In this document: piece after piece, positions 5,494 to 14,646 of the stretch
Position numbering within the stretch: position 1 is the stretch's first letter
How the letters are laid out: every line of letters begins with the position of its first letter
From: a bacterium
GTDB lineage: Bacteria > SZUA-182 > DTGQ01
DNA length: 45,554 nt
Reading direction: 5' to 3'
Assembly (NCBI GenBank): GCA_040752695.1
Contig: JBFMGO010000036.1
Coordinates: forward strand, 1-45,554
Translations under genes and position numbers: made by a program
The notes under the pieces: model-generated
The model's database searches: none
The model's input: only the letters and a program-made list of their open reading frames with translations
Told to the model about the DNA's origin: nothing

Positions 5494-6201
5494 TTACCCG
5501 GTAAGAGATATCCGCAAGTTTATTGACCGCGGCATACCCTCCGGCGGGGGTTCACTCATCGCATGCATTTTTTCCATAGCCAGCTTTACAGCCTTATCCA
5601 TGTAATCATTTCCGGAAAAATCATAGATTCGATAATTAATAACTTTCCCCTCAACATCGAGGACAATTTTAAGCAGCACCTGGAGCTTGCCTTTAGGAAT
5701 TTCTCCACCCTGAATCATTATCCTTTTCTTGATTTCCCCCTCAATCATTCGGGTATACCAGGCGAATTTCTTCATCGGAGGGCATCCATGGGAATCTCCT
5801 CCGATCAAAATGGATCTTCCCCCTTTTTTACTCAGAAGGCCGAATGCGTCCGATCCTGCTGTGCCGTCGGCATCCAGTCCAAGGTTGTCGTCGGTGGCTG
5901 CATTTTCCTGGGAGTCATCGGTATTGGCCTGATCAAGGGGCGGTGCTTCCTCAGGCTCCGGTTCCGGCTCTATAATCTCCTGTTTTTGGACTTCTTGCTT
6001 TGGTTCCGGTGTTTTCTCAGGTATTTTGGGAGGGGGCTGGGTTATCAATCTCACTTCCTGAATCTGACGTACTCGCTGTGGCCCATGATCGGCCATCAGC
6101 ACCCTTATGGTTACAATAACCAAACCAGCGAGGGCGAGAAGAATGAAACCGCACACTACTCCAACAACTGATTGCAAGGGGTTTCTCTTGCATTGGGGCA
6201 T
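5494..6201 (-). CDS. TonB/TolA-family energy transducer
   Basis: N-terminal TM, Pro/Glu-rich linker (QPPPKIPEKTPEPK, EPEPEPEEAPP), TonB_C-like C-terminus (SGN..MD.AV..A, PPPEGMP). Confidence 0.8.
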   Translation of the reverse strand: MPQCKRNPLQSVVGVVCGFILLALAGLVIVTIRVLMADHGPQRVRQIQEVRLITQPPPKIPEKTPEPKQEVQKQEIIEPEPEPEEAPPLDQANTDDSQENAATDDNLGLDADGTAGSDAFGLLSKKGGRSILIGGDSHGCPPMKKFAWYTRMIEGEIKKRIMIQGGEIPKGKLQVLLKIVLDVEGKVINYRIYDFSGNDYMDKAVKLAMEKMHAMSEPPPEGMPRSINLRISLTG

Positions 6202-6250
6202 ACATTATCCTCCGGGAAAATTTATGTGGTTAAAAGGTATCCTGCCGGTG

Positions 6251-6658
6251 TTACTTGACAACTTTTTGAGTAACAAGCCCTAACTGATTGATCTCGAGCT
6301 TGGCTAAAATGTTCAGTACCTCGATGATCGATTTATAGGCGATTTTCTCATCCCCCTTGATAATGATTGGCAGATCAGGATCTGCGGCTTTATATTGACG
6401 CAATCTGGTCTCCAGCTCTTCCATTGTCACCCGGAATGTGTCAAGGTAAATAGAACCCTCAGCGGTGATGCTTATCGCCTTGGTTTTCGGTTTCGCCATA
6501 CTTGGCGAATTACTGGCAGTGGGCAGATTTACCTTGATGCCCTGGACCGTGGCCGTAATGGCAACAATAAAGACCACCAGAAGGTTCCAGGCCAGATCCA
6601 TAAGCGGTGTAATATTGATTTCGGTATAAGCGGCGCTTTGATAAATGTTTCTTTTCAT
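6251..6658 (-). CDS. exbD: ExbD/TolR biopolymer transport protein
   Basis: EINITPLMDLAWNLLVVFIV, VNLP, IIKGDEKIAY..I.EVL..L. Confidence 0.9.
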   Translation of the reverse strand: MKRNIYQSAAYTEINITPLMDLAWNLLVVFIVAITATVQGIKVNLPTASNSPSMAKPKTKAISITAEGSIYLDTFRVTMEELETRLRQYKAADPDLPIIIKGDEKIAYKSIIEVLNILAKLEINQLGLVTQKVVK

Positions 6659-6689
6659 GCTCTTTCTCCATTCATGCTCTCTTTGCCGT

Positions 6690-8525
6690 TCATGCTCTTT
6701 CGCCGTATTTTTCTTCCACTTTACAGATAAATTCATCAACGAATAAATACATGTCAGCCGTCAGGTTTCTGATCTTGCCAACCAGATAATTGTAGCCGAA
6801 CAACGCCGGTATAGCGACAATGAGGCCGATAACAGTAGTGGACAAAGCTGAAGCAATACCCGGAGCAATAACCACGATGTCTGCCTCACCAGCCATGGCC
6901 ATGCCTGCAAAGGTGTTCATAATACCCCAGACCGTACCCAAAAGCCCCAGAAAGGGGCCTCCGCTGATGGCCAGGGTCAGAATGAGCAGCCATTTGTTGA
7001 GCCTTTGCTCCTCTTTGGTTGTGCCTTTTTCCAGCGATGCCTTGAATGAAGTGATTTCTTTTGATTTAAGGATTCCCTCCTGAGACTTTGAACCACCGGC
7101 GCTCCCGATACGGCCTTTCAATTCCTGTTTCCCTTCGCAATAGATCTGATGAAGGGGGGAATCCTGAAAGTTTTTGTCTGTATTTTCAAAAGCAAGCATG
7201 TCGGACGATTCCCGGAATACTTCAAGAAACTCCTTGTTTCCCTTGTCCGCCAAAAAGAGCGTAAGGGTTTTGGCCAGCAGTACGATCCAGCTCAAGGCCA
7301 GCATGATAACGAGAATAATATTGATAACCCAGCCATCCAGGGTGGTATATCTGATAACCGTTCTGGTGTATGCCCAATAATTGGAAAGAGCCCTCTTCAG
7401 CCCGCTCTCTTCGACATTTCGCTCCTCCCCGGCATAGGCAACGAGGCTGCTCTCCGGTCCCTGTCCTGTAGCAGCCAGCCTGATCCATGCACCCGGTCTG
7501 GCCAGATTCGAGATTTGAATCTCGTCCAACTCGCCTAAGAGAAAATGCCCTCCTGCGGTTGAAGCTCCCAGGGCACAGGTGCCGGTCAAGTCGGGTAAAG
7601 CCGCAGGCAAATCCCTGGTGCAGACTGAAGTTCCATCGAGATATATGTCCAGCTTCCCGCTTTGATCAACCGAAACGGCAACATGGTACCATCTTCCAGC
7701 AGAAAGATCCGTATCCGCTTCAGCCACCGCAGCCTGATCCTTGTCTTTTGCAATCCGGCAATAGACTTTCTCCTGATTGATGCCAATCACCAAAGATCCG
7801 CTCTGCTCTTCTCTGGCGAAAAGGTAAGCGTCTTTTTGAGGGCCGGCGATCCTGAGCCAGGTACTGAAGGTGAACCCGCCGGAAGTGCCGGGAAAGTTCA
7901 AGGGTGGTGAGGCAGGGATGATCATCCTGTCTGAAATTCCGTTCAGGGAGAGGCCGCTGCCGATTATTGCAGGGACCGGCATGCCCAAAGACCCGCCGCC
8001 AGAGTCTGATATGTTGTTATCATAAGCTGTCTGGTCCTTGAAAAGACCTTCAGACTCCTCCAGGTGATAGACAGCAGCCTGATTCAGATCATAGGTTCCT
8101 TTGGCATCCTGGCCGTCCTCAGCCGCCTCGTTTCCATAGTACATCCAGATGAAATTGCTGCCGGATGCATCCGCGAGGCTGGTCACCTTTACCCAGATCA
8201 GGGCCATCTCATAGAGTGTGTCATACTTTTCAAAGTGATACTTAAGGAGCGTCTTATCATCGCTGCTCACAAAACGAAGGTCTCTTCCTTTCTCTTTCAC
8301 TCTGGTAAAGTCCAGGTTACCCGAATGCAATCTTAAAAGAACCGTTGGCTGGCCTAAATTTTCTTTCAGGTCGATTCCAGACGAAGAAGTGTCGAGAATA
8401 ATCTTCTTGCGATACATCCACTGATCGTTCCACCAGGCTTGTGCCGGTGATGCAAGGGCAATCAGGATGAACAGCACCATAAAGGCGGACAGCCAGGGGA
8501 ATGGATAGGTAAGTTTTTTGGTCAT
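6690..8525 (-). CDS. DUF2341 + LamG + MotA/TolQ/ExbB fusion protein
   Basis: Signal peptide (AQA-WWNDQW.YRKKI), DLRFV..D, LamG (WYHVAV, LDEIQIS), ExbB motif GPFLGLLGTVWGIM..APGIASALSTT..GL.VAIPAL; RBS GGAGG. Confidence 0.9.
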   Translation of the reverse strand: MTKKLTYPFPWLSAFMVLFILIALASPAQAWWNDQWMYRKKIILDTSSSGIDLKENLGQPTVLLRLHSGNLDFTRVKEKGRDLRFVSSDDKTLLKYHFEKYDTLYEMALIWVKVTSLADASGSNFIWMYYGNEAAEDGQDAKGTYDLNQAAVYHLEESEGLFKDQTAYDNNISDSGGGSLGMPVPAIIGSGLSLNGISDRMIIPASPPLNFPGTSGGFTFSTWLRIAGPQKDAYLFAREEQSGSLVIGINQEKVYCRIAKDKDQAAVAEADTDLSAGRWYHVAVSVDQSGKLDIYLDGTSVCTRDLPAALPDLTGTCALGASTAGGHFLLGELDEIQISNLARPGAWIRLAATGQGPESSLVAYAGEERNVEESGLKRALSNYWAYTRTVIRYTTLDGWVINIILVIMLALSWIVLLAKTLTLFLADKGNKEFLEVFRESSDMLAFENTDKNFQDSPLHQIYCEGKQELKGRIGSAGGSKSQEGILKSKEITSFKASLEKGTTKEEQRLNKWLLILTLAISGGPFLGLLGTVWGIMNTFAGMAMAGEADIVVIAPGIASALSTTVIGLIVAIPALFGYNYLVGKIRNLTADMYLFVDEFICKVEEKYGERA

Positions 8526-9005
8526 GTAACCTCCAGAGGTTAACTCTTTCCTTATGTTTTTATTCATATTTTTATTCATATTTTTATCCATGCTTTTATT
8601 CATGCTCTTATTCACGTCCATAGTTTATATTCTTTGCTCTTTATGTTTTCTTTTCCGATTCGACCTCTTCCATTGACAACGGTACATTATTTGCAAGAGG
8701 TGTGATGGTCTGCCTGTTTCCAGGGAATTCACAAGGTACGGCAGGGGTGATTGGACACGCAGTCTGAACGAGAGCGGGAAAGGTGATCCGCCACGAGAAG
8801 ATAATCAGTACAAGGCGGCTGAGCATCTTTCTCAGGCTTCCTCTCCTCATGGAAATCCTTGTGTTCTTACTCCGCCATCTTCTCCACTCATGACTTTTAT
8901 AATTCTTGCACTGGTAATGCATAGATTAAATTTTTATGAATAGTATGTTAATTTTTCAGTTTTAAATCTCTTTCATTAAAAGAGTTCAAAAAACTGATCA
9001 AGCCT

Positions 9006-9060
9006 ATCTTAATGAGTAATTGTTAAACGATTCTTAAATGAATATTAAATATTCGTTAAG
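9006..9060 (-). promoter_or_regulatory. Putative Pho-box array plus -10 element
   Basis: Minus strand cTTAAC-tTTAAT-tTTAAG-tTTAAC at exact 11-bp period (units begin 9022, 9033, 9044, 9055 on +), then TAAGAT 10 bp downstream. Confidence 0.6.
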
Positions 9061-9131
9061 AAATTATTATAATGAATTGAGAAACTGGTTTGATTAATAT
9101 CGAAGGGAAGATGATCTCCCGGCTTTATTGA

Positions 9132-10229
9132 TTATTGTATTTCCAAAGCGGCACGCTGCAATCCTTCCCCTGACGGAGGACAGGTCCTGACCACATGAAA
9201 CGACATGGCTGCTTCGGTCACCTGACTTCTGCCGGTAAAAAGAAAGATACTCATCCACAAAAATTGCAGGAAAAGGATCATAACCGGATTCCAGAGGGAG
9301 CGTAATCCTGCCACGATATTTGCATTCTGAAGGTGTGGTATCGCAAACCACCATGATATAAATACGGCGTAGGGAACCGATATCATTCCCATTATCTGAT
9401 AGGCTGAAAAGTCTCCCTTCCCCCGGTAGTCGGCCCGGAAGAACTCCGAGATTATCCTCCAGGCTTGAGTCGTGATCAGCGTCTGCAAAAAGGCGGCTGC
9501 ATAGTAACCGTTCAGAAAAAGATACACACCCAAGAGCCCGGAGCCGGTATAAATGATGGAAGTTATGGCCTGGATCGGTATCACCTTCTGGCCATCGAGC
9601 CCGCCTTCATAAGCCACTTTTTTGGTGTGTCCAAAGAAGATAAAGTTTCGCTTCTCGAACAGTTTCTGGAAAAAGGGATGACTTTTGGCCAGAGGCTTTC
9701 CGTAACAGCAGCCAAAGCTGATGCAGGCGAGCCTTCCGATACCCTCGCCAAGTGCATAGGAGGAGGTGAGTGCAGCCAGGGAAGTCAGGACCGGTACCTG
9801 CACCCCTGCCCCTTTGCCCAGAGTCTGGTTGATCAGCCAGAAGACCCACGGCGCTGTCACCAGTCCGGCGAATGAGGCTCCGCCGACCGTAAAGGTATTC
9901 GGCTGTTTTTCAACCAGCCTGGCTATGATCCTGGAGGCAGGAACGCAGACAGCCAGTATGACCGCTGCTTCAACCATGCTGATATACATCGGCACGGCCA
10001 GGGAGCCTAAAAGGGCAAACATAATGGCTACCGCTGCAACATATGCGTTGGCGGTGAATAAACCATAATAGGTGAAATTGATTCCTTTCCAGATGCCGCT
10101 TTCTTCTTTCATTTTCGGCATGGAGACGAGAATCTGCCATTTCTCCTGCGGCAGGGCACTGAATCCCCATAGCAGCATAAGGGCTAAAATAAGAGCAAGC
10201 GTTAAGATAAAAAGCTCGTTTATCATCAT
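9132..10229 (-). CDS. Divergent prolipoprotein diacylglyceryl transferase (Lgt)-family membrane protein
   Basis: Multi-TM; YYG, GEGIGRLAC..FGCCYG, PIQ, WRIISEFFR match Lgt signature regions; SFHGG motif is altered. Confidence 0.75.
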   Translation of the reverse strand: MMINELFILTLALILALMLLWGFSALPQEKWQILVSMPKMKEESGIWKGINFTYYGLFTANAYVAAVAIMFALLGSLAVPMYISMVEAAVILAVCVPASRIIARLVEKQPNTFTVGGASFAGLVTAPWVFWLINQTLGKGAGVQVPVLTSLAALTSSYALGEGIGRLACISFGCCYGKPLAKSHPFFQKLFEKRNFIFFGHTKKVAYEGGLDGQKVIPIQAITSIIYTGSGLLGVYLFLNGYYAAAFLQTLITTQAWRIISEFFRADYRGKGDFSAYQIMGMISVPYAVFISWWFAIPHLQNANIVAGLRSLWNPVMILFLQFLWMSIFLFTGRSQVTEAAMSFHVVRTCPPSGEGLQRAALEIQ

Positions 10230-10328
10230 GGTCCAGTTCCCTCTGATGTTCTAAATGTTCTATAAGGTTTCATGATAAGAAATGTTTCATGATACGGATG
10301 AAACTGCCCTCTTGTGAATCCGGCCTCG

Positions 10329-11405
10329 TCACTGAATTGCGGCTGCGATCTCGGACCGTACCTTGAGATCTGTTTCTGCCAGGGGTCTTCCGAACCCCTT
10401 TGAAAAGCGGCTCCTTACATCCTGATGATGCAGATTCGAGACAAGGTCACCGGAAAATTTCACTCTCCCTTTCTGGAAGATGAGTACATCAGTGGAGCTT
10501 CCCGGCCGGTAAAGGCTTTTCGGCTGACCTTTATGCAGGAGCATTCCTTTATGAATGTCCTTCGGGTGATCATATCTGCTCTCGCTGTAGCACTGAGTGA
10601 TATCGCCGATCATCAGGGCAACGATTTCGATCATGGCCACCAGCCCTGCGCCGGTTCCGCCTTCGACATCGGTGTCGATGATGGTTACCACCCTTTTATT
10701 TTTCGAATAGGGAGTGGCCATGATGACGACCGCAGACGGATTGCAGGAATGATATCCTCCGGGGATCTGGTAGACGTCCAGAACCTTCCCGCAGACAGGT
10801 GTATGATTGTAATGGTATTTTTCAGGCGTCAACCTGAAGATGGCAAAATCTCCTCCCTTAAAAGCCGTAAGCCAGGATTGTTTATCCCTTCCCAACAGAT
10901 CCTCGAAATGGAAAAATTTCTCTTTGAGGAAAAGGTGAGAAGTCTCGTCAAGGGAGCCGAGCAGCACTTTCGCATCAGCCGCAGAGACAATGGCTGAAGG
11001 CTCTTTTGGCATGGGACGTGTTTCCCAGTACCTGATCTTTCTTTCGAATATCTTTTTGGCTGTATTTAAATTTCCGGGATAATCAAGGCATTCGGAAAAA
11101 TCGATTCCCAAAGCTGCCATGAGTTTTTTCCCTTTGGTAATTCTTGTCTCAAGACAGAGGTCATAGTTGAAAAATCCCAAAAAGCTGGACATTCGGGCAG
11201 AGGTCAACATCTTGAAAAGGAGTTGTGAATTCTCTCTCGCGGCAGAGTAGATAAACCGTATCATCGGGTCGGCATAGAGCTTTTCCGTCTTGACCGTGCC
11301 TGTTTCCCGCTCGATATACTGATGTATTTCCCTATACTGATGTATTTCCCGCTCGATATTCCGCCCGATATTCTGGTGAGACATAACGTTTTGTTTTAAT
11401 ATCAT
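10329..11405 (-). CDS. Phosphatidylserine decarboxylase-family (pyruvoyl) proenzyme
   Basis: FERKIR..RP, SAADAK, IFRLTPEKYHYNHTPV.G, SKNKR, RPGSSTDV cleavage motif; ATGA overlap with upstream stop. Confidence 0.85.
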   Translation of the reverse strand: MILKQNVMSHQNIGRNIEREIHQYREIHQYIERETGTVKTEKLYADPMIRFIYSAARENSQLLFKMLTSARMSSFLGFFNYDLCLETRITKGKKLMAALGIDFSECLDYPGNLNTAKKIFERKIRYWETRPMPKEPSAIVSAADAKVLLGSLDETSHLFLKEKFFHFEDLLGRDKQSWLTAFKGGDFAIFRLTPEKYHYNHTPVCGKVLDVYQIPGGYHSCNPSAVVIMATPYSKNKRVVTIIDTDVEGGTGAGLVAMIEIVALMIGDITQCYSESRYDHPKDIHKGMLLHKGQPKSLYRPGSSTDVLIFQKGRVKFSGDLVSNLHHQDVRSRFSKGFGRPLAETDLKVRSEIAAAIQ

Positions 11406-13822
11406 GACCGGCACTCCGCCTCGGACTGCCTGATATCGCTGTGAATGGTCAGGAGCGTAAGATGGATAAGCTTCCTTAAAACCTCTGCCGGTGCTCTTTC
11501 CTCAATCACCTCTCTCCTGACGGCTCCCAGAAAAGCCAGAGGACTTTTCCCGTCCAAAAGAGCAATAAGGGCTTGCTGGTAAAAAGTGTCTCCATCGAGA
11601 GCCGCACGTGCTTCGATTCTCCTGAAATCGTCTTCCAGAAGAGCGAAAGCCTCTTTCATCTGGCACATTCTCAGGGTATTTCGATAGTAACTCTCGGCAG
11701 CCTGATTGAACTCAATACCGGAAAGATGAAAAGGTGTTGCAGCATGGGCTTCATGCAAAATGCCCCGGCTGAGCTTTCCTGCTGCCGAGTACAGGTGAGG
11801 GTTTTCGATCCTGCTTTCAAGTTCGCTCAAGGTTGTGTGCAATCCCATAAGCTCTATGAGGTCTGCGGCATCTTCTTTGATAATCTTGATGAGTGCCCGC
11901 CGGTATTCGAGGTTGTGAGCCCGCAGATAGCCGGGATAGCGGTGACTCAGACGGATTTTGTCCATTTTCTTCAGAATCTTCATCATGAACTGGTTTTGGG
12001 TACCTTTTCGAACATAGAAAGTGGGAATGTTAATCGCGGTTCCAAAGAATACCTGCCTGCGCTCGCTCTCCGTGGAAGGGTCGTCCGGTATGTAGGCATG
12101 AGTGACATCTCCCTTCAGGATATATTTGTAAGCCAGGGCTGTAATCAGGGCCTGTAGGCTGGCGGCTTCTCCCATGTCGCCGCTGATGCTTTCGAACAGG
12201 CTGTAGTGCCGCCCCTCGAACCCCGAAAAGCCCAGGGATGAAAATGCACGAAGCCGGTAGAGCAGATAGATTGACATATTCGTATCGAACACGCCAAGAT
12301 CGGCCAGATCCTTTTTCAGCCTCTTTTCATTCCCCAGCGTGCCATCCAGCGCCGGGCTCTGGTCTGTGCTCATAAGAGATGCCAGATAATCGATAAGCCT
12401 GAAATCCGGAATAAAGTCACCTTTAAGACGAAATATCTTGCTGATGAATACATCGAGCCATTTCGGTCCGAAGGGTGTGATCGGGTTACCGAAGATTTTC
12501 AGTCTGGCCTTTCCCTTCCATCTGCGCCAGATCATGCGAAGATGAGTGTAGTCGAGCTCATGGGGCAGATACCCCAGCGCCTTCTCAGGATGAAAATCCC
12601 AAAAATCGAGCCTGTATGGTGCAGCGCTGTAGGAGCCGACAAACAGGGGCAGGAAGTGCTCGATGATCTTTATGGCCAGATCGCCAAGGTATTTCTCCTC
12701 TTGAGCCCCGAACCCCGATGCTGCATCACCCACAAGACCGCTCAGTTTACGGCTGCCAAGACTCAGGTGCGTTCCATTGTTAGCCAGGCTGACATTCGAC
12801 AGATTGGGAAGCACTACCAGATTTCTGGTGATGATGCCGGCATCCTTTAATTTGGTCAGAGTGTTCAGGTGGCTTCTGGATAAAACCTGATGACAGAGAA
12901 TCATGTAATGATGTTTGACTTCACCCCTATCCCACCCGGAGAGGCAGGGACTCATGAAAAGTTCCCTGTAAAACGAGTCGGATATGAGATCGTTTAAATA
13001 CTTCTGCCGTACAGGCGGGTGCGGCGCAAAATAGATCATGGCCCTCTGCCCGTTTTCGATAAGCTGGAAACTTCTGTTGGCGTACATGGTAAGAAACTGA
13101 GTCAGTAAAAAGCGTTTTGAGGTTTCCCTGGCTATACCTTTTCCCATTCCGGTGCCGGGACTTAACAAAACCGTTTGAAAGGAATGGGTTTCCGGCGAAG
13201 TATTATCGTTGAGGAAATGATGCATGATCCGTTCACTGGTTGCCCTGACCGCTAGGTGAAGCTCAGGGCCGGAGCTCACGGCATCTGCCAGGGATAATTT
13301 GAGGAGATAACTGAGCGGAATTCTTATATGTTCCTCCCCGTTTTTGTAAAAGGTAAACCTGCCCGCGTCCCCGCGCGTGGTACCTGCGGGATCGTTTTTA
13401 TCAGCCAATAGATCGCGGCTGAAGACGGTATTGGCGTAAGGGCTCAACACCGAGCGGGGGAACCTTACCCAACTGTTTTCCCAAACCTCCTGATGATTGT
13501 CATGAAGATACTTTTCCAATTCGGTGATTATTCTCTTGGGAGTATCTCCTGCAATGGTTCTTTTAATCATGTTTTGGTAATAATTGGATTCCTCTATGGT
13601 TATGGGAAGATCAATATCATTTTTTCTCCCGGTAACTACCGTTTGAAGCTCAGTTTCTGAACCAGCGGTGGTATCGTTGAGCGAAAAAGGAATGGATTCG
13701 ATGAACGCTTCAGGTGACTTTTGATTTATTTCTAATAGATTCAAGATTCTTGCCAAACCGTAAGGCGTATAAATCTCGCTCTTTGCACTTTCTCCCCTCA
13801 ACAGTATATCCATACGAACCAT
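11402..13822 (-). CDS. Uncharacterised 806-aa protein with glutamate-cysteine ligase/YbdK (GCS2)-like motifs
   Basis: Ordered motifs TAGSETELQ, APHP, NGTHLSLG, LPLFVGSYSAAPY, YRLR..GFEGRH; RBS GGAGG. Confidence 0.6.
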   Translation of the reverse strand: MVRMDILLRGESAKSEIYTPYGLARILNLLEINQKSPEAFIESIPFSLNDTTAGSETELQTVVTGRKNDIDLPITIEESNYYQNMIKRTIAGDTPKRIITELEKYLHDNHQEVWENSWVRFPRSVLSPYANTVFSRDLLADKNDPAGTTRGDAGRFTFYKNGEEHIRIPLSYLLKLSLADAVSSGPELHLAVRATSERIMHHFLNDNTSPETHSFQTVLLSPGTGMGKGIARETSKRFLLTQFLTMYANRSFQLIENGQRAMIYFAPHPPVRQKYLNDLISDSFYRELFMSPCLSGWDRGEVKHHYMILCHQVLSRSHLNTLTKLKDAGIITRNLVVLPNLSNVSLANNGTHLSLGSRKLSGLVGDAASGFGAQEEKYLGDLAIKIIEHFLPLFVGSYSAAPYRLDFWDFHPEKALGYLPHELDYTHLRMIWRRWKGKARLKIFGNPITPFGPKWLDVFISKIFRLKGDFIPDFRLIDYLASLMSTDQSPALDGTLGNEKRLKKDLADLGVFDTNMSIYLLYRLRAFSSLGFSGFEGRHYSLFESISGDMGEAASLQALITALAYKYILKGDVTHAYIPDDPSTESERRQVFFGTAINIPTFYVRKGTQNQFMMKILKKMDKIRLSHRYPGYLRAHNLEYRRALIKIIKEDAADLIELMGLHTTLSELESRIENPHLYSAAGKLSRGILHEAHAATPFHLSGIEFNQAAESYYRNTLRMCQMKEAFALLEDDFRRIEARAALDGDTFYQQALIALLDGKSPLAFLGAVRREVIEERAPAEVLRKLIHLTLLTIHSDIRQSEAECRS

Positions 13823-13923
13823 GCCTCCATGAGTTTTGTACCTGAAAATCCATCTACGTTCTCTATTGTATTACTCAAGTATTACAAGTATTACACATCT
13901 GTGTTGAGATTCAGTAAGGATAG

Positions 13924-13940
13924 TGTTAAAAATTGTTAAA
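13924..13940 (-). promoter_or_regulatory. Possible Pho-box-like direct repeat TTTAACA-N3-TTTAACA
   Basis: Perfect 7-bp direct repeat about 100 bp upstream of the 806-aa gene; period 10, not 11. Confidence 0.35.
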
Positions 13941-14128
13941 TGTTCCTTTCGAGAAATCGCCTGACAGCGTATTACCGCTGCACAGAAGGGAATGAGAAAA
14001 AGGGGTGGATAGGCCACGACCTTGCAGGCTGTAAGGTCGTGGAAATAGATGCTCAATGCACGTCAAGGGAATTTGCCGGTTATTGATTGGAGGGTTTTGA
14101 AGCGGCTGCGGTGATAGAGGTCATCATG

Positions 14129-14176
14129 GCTAAACTTTTTTGCAGCTAAACTTTTTTGCAGCTAAACTTTTTTGTA
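14129..14176. repeat. Three tandem 16-bp repeats GCTAAACTTTTTTGCA
   Basis: Directly visible, one mismatch in the third copy. Confidence 0.9.
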
Positions 14177-14185
14177 GAAAGAGGC

Positions 14186-14215
14186 TCAGCATTCGGGAAA
14201 AATCCCGAATGCTGA
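14186..14215 (-). terminator. Hairpin, probable terminator of the Rho_N-domain gene
   Basis: 13-bp perfect stem TCAGCATTCGGGA/TCCCGAATGCTGA, followed on minus strand by GCCTCTTTCT. Confidence 0.55.
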
Positions 14216-14301
14216 ACGTTCCTGGACTGATTTTATCGGCAAAGCGGTGAGAAACGGCCAGTCAAAGGCAGTCCTTAGAGGGAGCAATGAGAAATGAATG
14301 C

Positions 14302-14646
14302 TTAGGCAGCCTTAGTTGCACGCTTGATCTTTCGTTTGAGATACTTGATCTTTCTTCGCAGCCGTTTCACCTTATCCTTGTCTTTTTCTTTGAGGGCTTC
14401 GCCCTTATCTTTTTGTCTGGCTCTCATTTCCTGTTTCAGCGATCCCTTGGCCTGTAATACCTTTTTCTTTTTCGCTTTCGCTGTGGCCGCGGCCTCTTCT
14501 TCTTTGATTCCCAGAACGTCCATGAGGACTTTAATCAGTTGATCCTTTTCCATCTCATGGATTGTGCCGGAAATCTGATCCTTGTGCTTGAGGGCCTCGT
14601 CTCTTAACTTAGATATGGGCATTTTTTCTAAGTCTTTCTTTTCCAT
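14302..14646 (-). CDS. Small basic protein with Rho N-terminal (HEH)-like domain
   Basis: LEKMPISKLRDEA..HEMEKDQLI pattern plus Lys-rich helical tail; RBS GGAGG. Confidence 0.65.
   Translation of the reverse strand: MEKKDLEKMPISKLRDEALKHKDQISGTIHEMEKDQLIKVLMDVLGIKEEEAAATAKAKKKKVLQAKGSLKQEMRARQKDKGEALKEKDKDKVKRLRRKIKYLKRKIKRATKAA

Follow-up and report, generated by a model that had tools for sequence, protein, structure and literature searches.

An 806-residue protein with a predicted glutamate–cysteine ligase fold shares a conserved cassette with homologues of phosphatidylserine decarboxylase and Lgt, a candidate pathway for a phosphorus-free, sulfur-containing lipid

Phosphate-sparing lipid pathways comprise the PlcP/Agt glycolipids, the OlsBA/OlsF ornithine lipids and the BtaAB betaine lipids. 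They replace phospholipids at low phosphate, which is the role proposed here for a three-gene cassette, but none of them involves a ligase of the glutamate–cysteine ligase (GCL) fold, a pyruvoyl decarboxylase or Lgt chemistry, and the cassette product would be thioether-linked, unlike their lipids. Agt and OlsF are described as mattering under phosphate limitation in Desulfovibrio alaskensis G20 (PMC5193443). In Desulfatibacillum alkenivorans PF2803 (DSM 16219; PMC4703814), PE, PG and CL were almost fully replaced at low phosphate by GlcA lipids and BACys, a phosphorus-free, sulfur-containing 'butyramide cysteine' glycerolipid with a tentative, MS2-based structure (PMC11181052). Its head group yields a fragment at m/z 205.064 (C7H13O3N2S+), and BACys-DAG (35:0) is tabulated in the supplement as C45H87O7N2S with 799.6228; no genes are proposed there for this lipid (PMC11181052).

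The structural relatives of the first cassette protein, named X806, are GshA of E. coli (1v4g, 1va6, 2d32; PF04262), the GCL domain of GshF (3ln6, 3ln7), YbdK of the GCS2 family (1r8g, 1tt4; PF04107), PafA and Dop (4bjr, 9cku, 4b0r), whose substrates are a protein tag and the lysines or glutamine of proteins, and glutamine synthetase (GS) together with GS-like gamma-glutamyl-amine synthetases (e.g. 8pvg, 9qur). YbdK is encoded by a stand-alone gene and its role is uncertain. The two partner proteins resemble PSD (7cnw; PF02666), which acts on PS, and Lgt (PF01790), which acts on lipobox proteins and has an N-acylated (peptide-bound) cysteine as its natural acceptor.

The cassette was found on the minus strand of a 45,554-nt stretch (positions 1 to 45,554 of contig JBFMGO010000036.1, assembly GCA_040752695.1), referred to as the window. 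Its genes and upstream elements are as follows.

11402..13822, minus strand: X806, putative ligase gene and first gene of the cassette, an 806-aa open reading frame with ATG start
10329..11414, minus strand: PSD-like pyruvoyl decarboxylase, second cassette gene, 361 aa from the first GTG (PF02666, E 2.4e-36)
10497..10502, minus strand: G305-S306 (PGSS) of the PSD-like protein, proposed self-cleavage site yielding the pyruvoyl group
9132..10229, minus strand: Lgt-like polytopic membrane protein of 365 aa, third cassette gene (PF01790, 32.8 bits, cut-off 24.9)
13924..13940, minus strand: TTTAACA-ATT-TTTAACA, a direct repeat 111-127 nt ahead of the M4 start of X806
14184..14217, minus strand: terminator-like hairpin of 15 pairs after the upstream gene

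The true start of X806 is more likely M4 at 13813, giving 803 aa, because GGAGG lies about 11 nt upstream of it and the database copy P0001 also has 803 aa. Likewise, the PSD-like gene probably starts later than its first GTG, since conservation begins near residue 31. An intergenic region of 479 nt precedes X806, and the predicted hairpin within it marks the cassette off as a transcription unit of its own. The gene order was conserved in loci from Thermodesulfobacteriota, Nitrospirota and Acidobacteriota, with a patchy distribution across anaerobic phyla. A PSD-like gene directly followed X806 at 67 of the 70 loci with enough flanking sequence (two more had overlapping starts), and an Lgt-like gene lay at most 2.2 kb downstream at 58 of 65 loci and at a greater distance downstream in five more.

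Both partners match their family HMMs and retain the cleavage and catalytic motifs, but their proposed substrates, a glutamyl head group and a small thiol, differ from those of PSD and Lgt. The PSD-like protein matched E. coli PSD (7cnw_A, E 6e-11) with its D and YH..H motifs aligned and stayed below all NCBIfam PSD equivalog cut-offs (129.6 versus 371 bits). Of the 68 members of its family, at least 98% retain P304 and G305 and at least 90% retain S306 and S307; we take this PGSS site to be analogous to the LGST site of PSD. Two further, shorter PSD genes elsewhere in the source genome are housekeeping copies. The Lgt-like protein contains several hydrophobic segments and missed the NCBIfam Lgt equivalog (25.7 versus 334 bits). 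A canonical Lgt encoded elsewhere in the genome scored 241.7 bits. Aligned with this canonical Lgt, the Lgt-like protein reached an hhalign probability of 95.6% (E 1.2e-8) and shared the motif G-x-G-I-G-R-x-x-C-x-x-x-G-C-C-Y-G-K; judged by this alignment, it is paralogous to Lgt, the lipoprotein diacylglyceryl transferase.

X806 itself gave zero matches against Pfam, NCBIfam and PDB sequences, and a search of the ESM Atlas with the whole protein returned no named neighbour. No hydrophobic 19-residue window was detected in it. The earlier note, written from the DNA sequence alone, had described this 806-aa reading frame as about twice as long as YbdK and as carrying the active-site motifs of GCS2/YbdK in order, with large insertions that may bind membrane or a partner. 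The reading frame is present, it is twice the length of YbdK or more, all of the motifs were recovered from the translation in the order given, and the YbdK strings quoted for comparison (TLGIELEMQ, GQHVHVG, FVPHFIALSAASPY and WDIR...TVEVR) are truly in YbdK of E. coli K-12. The motifs include APHP (residues 266-269), NGTHLSLG (349-356), FLPLFVGSYSAAPY (390-403), YRLR (522-525), GFEGRH (534-539) and AASLQALITAL (553-563). Their conservation was assessed in 39 full-length relatives of 30-76% identity, and the following motif regions were placed on the structural model.

13643..13669, minus strand: strand 1 motif TAGSETELQ, residues 52-60, on model strand 51-58, with conserved E56 and E58
13181..13207, minus strand: DNTSPETHS, residues 206-214, with invariant D206, N207, P210, E211 and S214, on model strand 211-213
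12755..12781, minus strand: NNGTHLSLG, residues 348-356, with invariant H352, on model strand 351-357, putative counterpart of YbdK GQHVHVG
12614..12661, minus strand: EHFLPLFVGSYSAAPY, residues 388-403, with invariant E388 and P402, putative counterpart of YbdK FVPHFIALSAASPY
12209..12259, minus strand: YRLR...GFSGFEGR, residues 522-538, with invariant R525, E536 and R538, putative counterpart of YbdK WDIR...TVEVR

E211, H352, E388, R525, E536 and R538 are invariant in all 39 relatives and E56 and E58 are conserved in at least 90% of them; by this comparison, the motif residues are under strong constraint. E56 and E58 are proposed as a metal-binding E-x-E pair, and E211 may be a further metal-binding glutamate. 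NNGTHxS resembles the GS motif 'NGSGxHxH'.

In profile-profile alignments with GCS2/YbdK, the five motif blocks were co-linear but at noise level, with an overall hhalign P of 0.037. The best block (X806 50-62 on YbdK 11-23) reached P 0.0012, with 0.44 in its reversed control, and the others about P 0.02-0.1, against a reversed-profile control that itself reached P 0.003. These others were 350-356 on 134-140 (P 0.02-0.03 in windowed alignments), 390-406 on 157-173 (P 0.016-0.02) and 532-560 on 233-261 (P 0.11, weak though co-linear). At low stringency, P210-E211 and S214 of X806 lined up with 'KpE..qS', a conserved stretch of the GCS2 profile. By sequence, the resemblance to YbdK thus exceeds chance only weakly.

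By predicted structure, it clearly does so. The AF2 model of X806 had a pLDDT of 92.1 and a pTM of 0.93, and its alignment with VIA-align against 48,161 chains placed exclusively GCL, YbdK, PafA/Dop or GS on ranks 1-18 (Z 15.8, 15.7, 15.1, 14.6, 14.0, 13.9, 11.8 and 10.1, followed by GS with 8.7-6.3). Unrelated matches started at Z 5.9 or below and were confined to the C-terminal helices. E. coli gamma-glutamylcysteine synthetase (1v4g_A) superposed with Z 15.7 over 409 of 509 residues (rmsd 4.1) and the Salmonella YbdK homologue (1tt4_A) with Z 15.1 over 338 of 354 residues (rmsd 3.6). Foldseek, suggested as a check in the earlier note, gave GCL on ranks 1-10 (probability 0.98-1.00) and a probability of 0.94 for YbdK 1r8g_A. 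In the separately predicted ESM Atlas model, the first named neighbour of residues 255-620 was again a GCL (TM 0.53, 252 residues aligned). The GS/GCS cradle, whose absence would have spoken against the YbdK reading, is present in the AF2 model, and the motif residues lie on its strands 51-58, 211-213, 351-357, 399-405, 522-525 and 534-539. The part of that reading which concerns the GCL/GS fold is therefore supported; membership in GCS2 is not, as the Pfam model (PF04107) matched neither X806 nor any of the 39 relatives. The models show X806 to have the GCL/glutamine synthetase fold as a very divergent new family, structurally as near to GshA-type GCL as to YbdK.

GshA and GshF, which hold the top ranks in Foldseek, share this fold with X806 at Z 15.7-15.8, and the E-x-E strand GLERETLRV of GshA aligns with GSETELQTV of X806. 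However, identity is only 10-14% and there is no HMM or profile match. X806 also differs from them in its length of 806 aa, its C-terminal helical domain (approx. residues 620-806) and its long insertions, one of which separates strand 1 from the remaining cradle in the AF2 model. It is encoded with lipid enzymes and not with gshB. GS shares the cradle (Z 8.7-6.3) but is further from X806 than GCL, and no N-terminal beta-grasp domain as in GS was noted.

The D. alkenivorans PF2803 genome contains the cassette, and the composition of its BACys can be compared with what the three proteins might make. Glutamate and cysteine minus H2O and CO2 give C7H14N2O3S, for which the R-S+ ion was computed as 205.0641, and joining this head group to DAG(35:0) with loss of H2O gives, when protonated, C45H87N2O7S+ with a computed 799.6229; both agree with the published values as elemental compositions only, which lie apart from the question of which carboxyl is lost and are the same for an ester or N-link as for a thioether. 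Neither GCS2 nor a GshA-type GCL was detectable in the D. alkenivorans genome, PF04262 was found in none of the 151 genomes sampled from each of two phyla carrying X806, one of them the phylum of D. alkenivorans, and GCS2 was not detectable in the genome of the window. The cassette would therefore need a Glu-Cys ligase of its own.

From fold, context and formula, we consider it probable (roughly 0.6) that X806 is a carboxylate-amine ligase, soluble and dependent on ATP and Mg, and that the cassette makes BACys in the following order. X806 would catalyse the classical GCL reaction, as GshA does, linking L-glutamate through its gamma-carboxyl to the L-cysteine amine. Fold and context suggest these two substrates, for a fold to which the protein ligase PafA, the deamidase Dop and YbdK also belong. 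The Lgt-like protein would then transfer the diradylglyceryl group of a phospholipid, e.g. phosphatidylglycerol, to the cysteine thiol, forming a thioether; this step would release glycerol phosphate and phosphorus would thus be recovered. Finally, the PSD-like enzyme would bind the glutamyl residue at its free alpha-amine as a Schiff base and decarboxylate it at the alpha position, so that the cysteine retains a 4-aminobutanoyl ('butyramide') group. The resulting lipid would be S-(diradylglyceryl)-N-(4-aminobutanoyl)cysteine.

The same cassette and lipid class with another order of steps is unlikely but deserves consideration. The Lgt-like protein would make S-diradylglyceryl-cysteine from free cysteine, the PSD-like enzyme would convert it into S-diradylglyceryl-cysteamine as PSD makes PE from PS, and X806, in the manner of GS-like gamma-glutamyl-amine synthetases, would gamma-glutamylate the primary amine so formed. 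This would give gamma-glutamyl-cysteamine as the head group, an isomer of 4-aminobutanoyl-cysteine with the identical formula C7H14N2O3S. The close likeness of S-diacylglyceryl-cysteine to phosphatidylserine fits a PSD homologue, and amine-acylating GS-fold enzymes such as gamma-glutamyl-methylamide synthetase (9qur_A, Z 7.1) were among the matches. However, these GS-type amine ligases reach only Z 7-9, compared to Z 15-16 for the Glu-Cys ligases nearest to X806, and a start from free cysteine contrasts with the N-acylated acceptor of Lgt. In addition, MS2 was read as butyramide on an intact cysteine in the description of BACys (PMC11181052), which is better explained by loss of the glutamyl alpha-carboxyl.

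It is less probable still that the cassette modifies a membrane lipid or lipid-linked molecule other than BACys, e.g. by glutamylation or aminoacylation of the PE/PS amine and subsequent decarboxylation or by lipidation of a small peptide, and that its occurrence in D. alkenivorans is coincidental. The lipid context does stem solely from the family membership of the two partners, and many genomes with the cassette belong to organisms with unstudied lipids. This reading offers no explanation, however, for the exact match between the head-group formula of BACys, the one new lipid class found in a carrier strain, and the sum of a Glu-Cys-ligase fold, an amino-acid decarboxylase and a thiol diacylglyceryl transferase; no other GCL is detectable in that strain.

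That X806 has the fold but does not ligate small molecules, acting instead as a protein ligase like PafA, an amidase like Dop or a pseudoenzyme that regulates or scaffolds its two membrane-associated partners, is very improbable. Dop (Z 14.0) and PafA (Z 13.9) do come nearly to the level of GCL, and the size of twice YbdK, the insertion after strand 1 and the C-terminal helical domain would suit such functions. A pseudoenzyme is at odds with the invariance of all candidate metal and phosphate ligands over 30-76% identity, and a PafA-like role with the recurrent neighbours of X806, among which no Pup-like or proteasome genes were found. A chance resemblance of motifs in an unrelated fold, to which the lack of significance in every sequence method and the whole-protein ESM Atlas search might point, is hardly credible and already contradicted by two separately predicted models with the GCL fold and by the superposition of the YbdK homologue.

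The cassette is tied to phosphate regulation only in part. At three of 80 loci (L002, L003 and L066) it is adjoined or interrupted by genes for PhoU, a PhoR-like kinase and an OmpR/PhoB-type regulator, PhoD lies inside it at one locus, an HAD phosphatase-like gene is found in the flanks of three and a Zn-dependent phospholipase C downstream at 14. An Agt-type GT4 glycosyltransferase gene is a frequent neighbour (23/80 loci), in three cases between the PSD-like and Lgt-like genes. The repeat at 13924..13940 is a candidate operator for a winged-helix regulator of the OmpR/PhoB type. The pattern [GT]T[ACT]AC[AC]N4-5[GT]T[ACT]AC[AC], derived from the very regions in which it was counted, preceded X806 on the sense strand in 29 of 76 regions and on the antisense strand in one, while 200 dinucleotide shuffles gave 0.3 on average and 3 at most. 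It preceded only one of twelve PstS-like (PBP_like_2) genes in three genomes, and 14 other intergenic hits in the genome of the window had no recognisable Pho gene downstream. At the D. alkenivorans locus, no Pho gene was found within 6 kb and the upstream repeat is absent.

If the preferred reading, in which X806, the Lgt-like protein and the PSD-like enzyme together make BACys, is true, the cassette would be a pathway for a phosphorus-free, sulfur-containing membrane lipid of phosphate-starved sulfate reducers.

X806 is the first gene of a three-gene cassette and is followed by a PSD-like gene and by a gene for an Lgt-like membrane protein.

Genes of the cassette
11402-13822, minus strand, X806, open reading frame of 806 aa
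10329-11414, minus strand, PSD-like gene
9132-10229, minus strand, Lgt-like gene

X806 opens a transcription unit, because a terminator-like hairpin of 15 pairs (14217-14184, minus strand) ends the upstream gene and a spacer of 479 nt precedes X806. Translation more likely starts at the second ATG (M4, 13813), as GGAGG lies about 11 nt before it and the database copy of the protein (P0001) has a length of 803 aa. Rfam gave nothing between positions 8500 and 14800 of the window, and the matches of a sigma-70 promoter scan stayed at chance level. Upstream of X806, a very lysine-rich protein of 114 aa is encoded (14302-14646, minus strand) that showed a sub-threshold HSCB_C match only; in none of 80 loci with X806 relatives was this gene conserved next to X806. 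Elsewhere in the window, the adjacent immunity genes Imm11 (E 1e-13) and Imm49 (E 7e-9) were seen at 321-896 and 1032-1835 on the plus strand with no toxin gene in between, and may belong to polymorphic toxin systems as orphan immunity genes. An ExbB-ExbD-TonB set (5494-8621, minus strand) contains a 643-aa ExbB with N-terminal DUF2341 and LamG/concanavalin-like domains.

The family of X806 comprises at least 2,819 proteins, found by scoring 8,000 candidates. The 120 best of these 2,819 (58-76% identity) are all named 'hypothetical', and none has a Pfam entry. An exhaustive search of representatives gave 770 clusters at E ≤0.001, and a relative is encoded in at least 534 species genomes. The 80 loci that were kept include Geobacteraceae, Desulfobacterales, Syntrophales, Nitrospirales and Acidobacteriota. 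The distribution is patchy: of 20 genomes from the small phylum to which the window belongs, 2 have relatives, and so do 12 of 151 genomes sampled from the phylum that includes Citrifermentans. Together with identities of 55-63% across phyla, this patchiness suggests that the family may have spread horizontally. Fused forms were not seen among proteins of 1,412-4,030 aa, which is weak evidence. There were 475 shorter matches, the best 120 of which are all fragments of X806's own family; as none of these 120 carries a GCS2 or GCL (glutamate-cysteine ligase) Pfam entry, no bridging relative was found among them. In a sister genome of the same genus, which also has a full X806 copy, a 150-aa open frame (G003:C25:1578-1985) gave another, short match, to the last 135 residues of X806, and may be a gene fragment.

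The earlier note had proposed that X806 hides a GCS2/YbdK active site of the glutamine synthetase (GS) fold. The seven motifs on which this was based were all found in the translation in the order claimed, and the YbdK strings given for comparison agreed throughout with E. coli K-12 ybdK, which was fetched and translated. X806 had no match in Pfam, NCBIfam and PADLOC, nor in PDB when searched by sequence (phmmer) or with a profile of 39 full-length relatives (30-76% identity), and the 39 relatives taken singly gave nothing in Pfam, NCBIfam and PDB. PF04107 (GCS2) did not match X806 at E ≤1 or any of the 39 relatives at E ≤10, and a search of the window's whole genome with it gave nothing. As judged from these profiles, X806 is not a member of Pfam GCS2 (PF04107). 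PF04262 (Glu_cys_ligase, GshA type) matched neither X806 nor the 39 relatives; it was found in 0/151 genomes in each of two phylum samples, and a GshA-type profile therefore had no members to be built from.

Profile comparison was carried out with a GCS2 profile of 25 sequences, namely YbdK and 24 GCS2 proteins whose reading frames were recovered from 31 examined loci (L081, a GCS2 locus, and 30 Acidobacteriota loci). In global mode, hhalign gave no match of X806 with GCS2, and neither did single YbdK and GshA sequences; the single-sequence comparison with E. coli GshA was at noise level (P 0.59). In local mode at low stringency, a low-power comparison, the alignment of the 39 relatives matched the GCS2 profile with P 0.037 and a probability of 1.4% over 333 co-linear columns, and passed co-linearly through the motifs. 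Windowed hhalign gave five blocks in the right order.

Blocks shared by X806 and YbdK in windowed hhalign
X806 50-62, YbdK 11-23, P 0.0012 (best)
X806 350-356, YbdK 134-140, P about 0.02-0.03
X806 390-406, YbdK 157-173, P about 0.02
X806 532-576, YbdK 233-273, P about 0.1
X806 654-684, YbdK 320-348, P 0.07

Off-path matches of like strength were also present, a reversed-profile control reached P 0.003 elsewhere, and the positive control, the GCS2 profile against E. coli GshA, failed (P 0.046, in the wrong region). Sequence comparison is therefore too weak here to decide on the fold of X806.

The predicted structure was more informative. AlphaFold2 on the alignment of the 39 relatives gave a model with a mean pLDDT of 92.1, a pTM of 0.93 and disorder only in residues 1-20; the ESM Atlas's own model had a pTM of 0.84. 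Searching the ESM Atlas with whole X806 returned no named neighbour. With residues 255-620, the first named neighbour was the PF04262 GCL cluster (TM 0.53 by query, 252 residues aligned), followed by a glutamine synthetase cluster (TM 0.37). Foldseek against PDB placed GCL structures on ranks 1-10, with 3ln6 at E 1.1e-3 and 1v4g_A at E 2e-3 (TM by target 0.50), and gave probabilities of 0.94 for YbdK (1r8g_A) and 0.66 for Dop; no match reached E 0.001. The model was also searched with VIA-align 2 against 48,161 representative chains.

VIA-align 2 matches of the X806 model
3ln7_B, Z 15.8, 384 residues aligned
1v4g_A, Z 15.7, 409/509 aligned
1tt4_A (YbdK homologue), Z 15.1, 338/354 aligned, rmsd 3.6
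3nzt_A, Z 14.6
Dop, Z 14.0
PafA, Z 13.9
Plant GCL, Z 11.8
Yeast GCL, Z 10.1
Ten GS-type entries, Z 8.7-6.3

Ranks 1-18 (Z 15.8-6.3) all belong to the GCL/GS superfamily (GshA, GCS2, eukaryotic GCL, PafA/Dop and GS). From rank 19 on (Z ≤5.9), the matches are nearly all unrelated helical proteins that cover only residues of about 715-806, with one more GS type III entry at rank 24 (Z 5.5). The antiparallel beta-sheet 'cradle' fold of this superfamily of carboxylate-amine ligases, on which the earlier note had made its proposal depend, is present in the model according to both searches. In the alignment, 39 columns are invariant, including E211, H352, E388, R525, E536 and R538, and at least 90% of the sequences retain E56 and E58. 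These residues, which are candidate metal (Glu/His) and phosphate (Arg) ligands, lie on predicted strands; the strands 51-58, 211-213, 351-357, 399-405, 522-525 and 534-539 of the AlphaFold2 model carry motif residues. The reading of the earlier note is supported for the fold and for a probable active site. X806 almost certainly has the GCL/GS fold and is probably active as a ligase. It is about equally distant from GshA-type GCL and from YbdK, and its family forms a new branch of these ligases that has diverged very far.

The second gene was assigned to PF02666 (E 2.4e-36) and did not reach equivalog level in NCBIfam (NF001941, 129.6 bits vs a cut-off of 371). Its family keeps the PG-SS self-cleavage site in 68 sequences (67 of 89 cluster members with 300-420 aa, and the window's own), and in an alignment with E. 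coli PSD (7cnw_A) its D and YH..H motifs have their counterparts. The third gene passes the cut-off of PF01790 (32.8 vs 24.9 bits) and stays below that of the NCBIfam Lgt equivalog (25.7 vs 334 bits). Its family, represented by 59 sequences that passed a length filter (320-400 aa), keeps G-R-x-x-C-x-x-x-G-C-C-Y-G-K, a motif that the genome's canonical Lgt also has; hhalign related the two proteins with a probability of 95.6%, only residues 50-181 being matched. Both partners are extra copies, as two short PSD genes and the canonical Lgt (241.7 bits) lie elsewhere in the genome. The arrangement is well conserved. Among the 70 of 80 loci with at least 1.2 kb of flank, the PSD-like gene directly follows X806 in 67; two more have overlapping starts, and in L066 it lies 5.5 kb away. 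Where at least 2.6 kb of flank was available, the Lgt-like gene starts within 2.2 kb of X806 in 58/65 loci, lies further downstream in five and was not seen within 6 kb in two.

Several loci carry further genes in or next to the cassette.

Inserted and neighbouring genes in variant loci
L066 (Citrifermentans bremense): X806, histidine kinase, OmpR/PhoB-type regulator, PhoR-like kinase, PhoU, then the PSD-like gene
L002 and L003: PhoU, PhoR-like kinase and regulator directly upstream, same strand
L064 (Acidobacteriota): PhoD phosphatase between the PSD-like and Lgt-like genes
L067: HAD phosphatase-like gene between the PSD-like and Lgt-like genes
L053, L068 and L076: GT4 glycosyltransferase of 817-819 aa between the PSD-like and Lgt-like genes, same strand

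A GT4 gene lies within the flanks in 23/80 loci, and downstream genes for a Zn-dependent phospholipase C (PF00882) and a DUF2062 membrane protein were found in 14 and 16 of the 80, respectively. The recurrent GT4 protein of about 815 aa (L077:1580-4024 and 22 other loci) has about 430 N-terminal residues without Pfam match that begin with MRIDLHVHSKHS, which we take to resemble a PHP-type phosphoesterase motif. If so, such a phosphoesterase-glycosyltransferase fusion would suit lipid remodelling. In some Geobacteraceae loci (L068:9532-11547, L053:8088-9701, L016 and L026), a protein of 537-671 aa without Pfam match is encoded between the PSD-like and GT4 genes or nearby, and it may be a further component of the pathway.

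Upstream of X806, the direct repeat [GT]T[ACT]AC[AC]-N4-5-[GT]T[ACT]AC[AC] was found in 29/76 regions in sense and in 1/76 in antisense orientation (dinucleotide shuffles: mean 0.3, maximum 3), a count that is descriptive only because the pattern was taken from k-mers enriched in the same regions.

Repeats in the spacer before X806 of the window
14125-14170, minus strand, AAAAAGTTTAGCTGC three times in tandem, immediately after the terminator-like hairpin
13940-13924, minus strand, direct repeat TTTAACA-ATT-TTTAACA
13868-13894, minus strand, GTAATAC three times with a spacing of 9 and 11 nt, about 55-80 nt upstream of the start

A second direct repeat is formed by GTAATAC, with the TTTAACA repeat on one side and the ribosome-binding site on the other. 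In Geobacteraceae loci (e.g. L021, L029, L037, L047, L055 and L079), the upstream repeat is nearly identical, GTAACACAAC-ATTTACA, and lies either about -50 or about -230 relative to the open frame's first ATG. Such a split suggests that starts were wrongly set or that two promoter architectures exist. None of the 14 other intergenic matches in the window's genome precedes a recognisable Pho gene, and in three genomes the repeat was found before 1 of 12 PBP_like_2 genes. The repeat is therefore not called a Pho box. The locus of Desulfatibacillum alkenivorans (L080) has neither Pho genes within 6 kb nor a copy of the repeat. An association of the cassette with phosphate starvation is suggestive and not established.

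A possible product of the cassette came from published lipid data. According to the available parts of Ding et al. 2024, D. alkenivorans PF2803 exchanges nearly all of its PE, PG and cardiolipin, when grown at 0.5-1.5 µM phosphate, for glucuronosyl glycerolipids and for new sulfur-containing aminolipids, tentatively named 'N-butyramide cysteine glycerols' (BACys) (PMC11181052). These have a head-group fragment of m/z 205.064 (C7H13O3N2S+) and occur with DAG, acyl/ether and diether cores; BACys-DAG (35:0) is tabulated in the supplement as C45H87O7N2S, 799.6228, and these parts of the paper propose no genes for BACys biosynthesis (PMC11181052). No other relevant paper or follow-up on BACys or butyramide cysteine was found in the literature searched. 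PF2803 is DSM 16219, as stated in the part consulted of PMC4703814, and this BACys-making strain carries the cassette (L080; X806 6001-8316, PSD-like 8366-9355, Lgt-like 9416-10450). Its genome had no match to PF04107 and PF04262; X806 is therefore the sole GCL-fold enzyme detected there. The GT4 neighbour would match the glycolipids induced alongside BACys, by analogy with Desulfovibrio alaskensis G20, where lipids of this kind require Agt (PMC5193443, available part).

The masses were then computed. Glutamate and cysteine minus water give gamma-Glu-Cys (C8H14N2O5S), and loss of CO2 leads to C7H14N2O3S, with an R-S+ ion at 205.0641 compared to the reported 205.064. Joined to DAG (35:0) with loss of water and protonated, it gives C45H87N2O7S+ at 799.6229 compared to the tabulated 799.6228. 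A Glu-Cys-type ligase, an amino-acid decarboxylase and a diacylglyceryl-to-thiol transferase would exactly account for the composition of BACys. The head-group formula leaves the linkage to glycerol unfixed, and the structure of BACys is tentative.

In the proposed pathway, X806 would make gamma-Glu-Cys. The Lgt-like protein would move the diradylglyceryl group from a phospholipid onto the thiol, by which glycerol phosphate would be freed; the normal acceptor of Lgt is an N-acylated cysteine. The PSD-like enzyme would finally remove the alpha-carboxyl of the glutamyl residue, which would supply the free alpha-amino acid group needed by a pyruvoyl enzyme. The resulting 4-aminobutanoyl-cysteine would fit the 'butyramide linked to a cysteine' described in the available part of the paper (PMC11181052). 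That the cassette is the BACys pathway, in either order of steps, is given a probability of about 0.6 to 0.65. There is an even chance that the three genes form a complete, self-sufficient pathway, and the exact order X806, Lgt-like, PSD-like is put forward tentatively. In the rival order, cysteine would be lipidated first, decarboxylated like PS and then gamma-glutamylated, and the product would be an isomer with the same formula as that of the preferred order. A much less likely reading is that X806 acts as a protein ligase or amidase of the PafA/Dop kind; in the match to its model, the scores of PafA and Dop come close to those of GCL, which limits the proposal. An anti-phage defence system was rejected in view of the lack of a PADLOC match and the lipid-enzyme context, as was a RiPP-lipoprotein hybrid like the one in the available part of PMC13056109, there being no precursor peptide or MNIO enzyme at the cassette.

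With the BACys pathway as the preferred reading, the conserved partners and the published lipidome suggest a specific, testable route to a lipid class without known genes. The three genes are the first candidates for this class, which was described in 2024 without a biosynthetic proposal. A large protein family without annotation is given a fold and a testable chemistry; every sequence method failed for X806 and only structure prediction worked, so that the GCL/GS superfamily extends beyond the reach of HMMs. If the proposal is true, BACys would be the first free membrane lipids built on thioether-linked S-diradylglyceryl cysteine, and they would be made by a private Glu-Cys ligase together with Lgt chemistry of the lipoprotein type on a small molecule and a PSD-type decarboxylase on a glutamyl head group. 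Lgt-type diacylglyceryl transfer would go beyond lipoproteins and a PSD homologue would work on a non-serine head group, which would widen the search scope of both families. The Lgt-like reaction would at the same time release glycerol phosphate from phospholipid. The cassette would then be a phosphate-sparing module that has spread horizontally among anaerobic bacteria of sediments. It would also serve as an environmental genetic marker for BACys lipids, and its genes would let geochemists map the makers of lipids that use sulfur and nitrogen in place of phosphorus in anoxic sediments.
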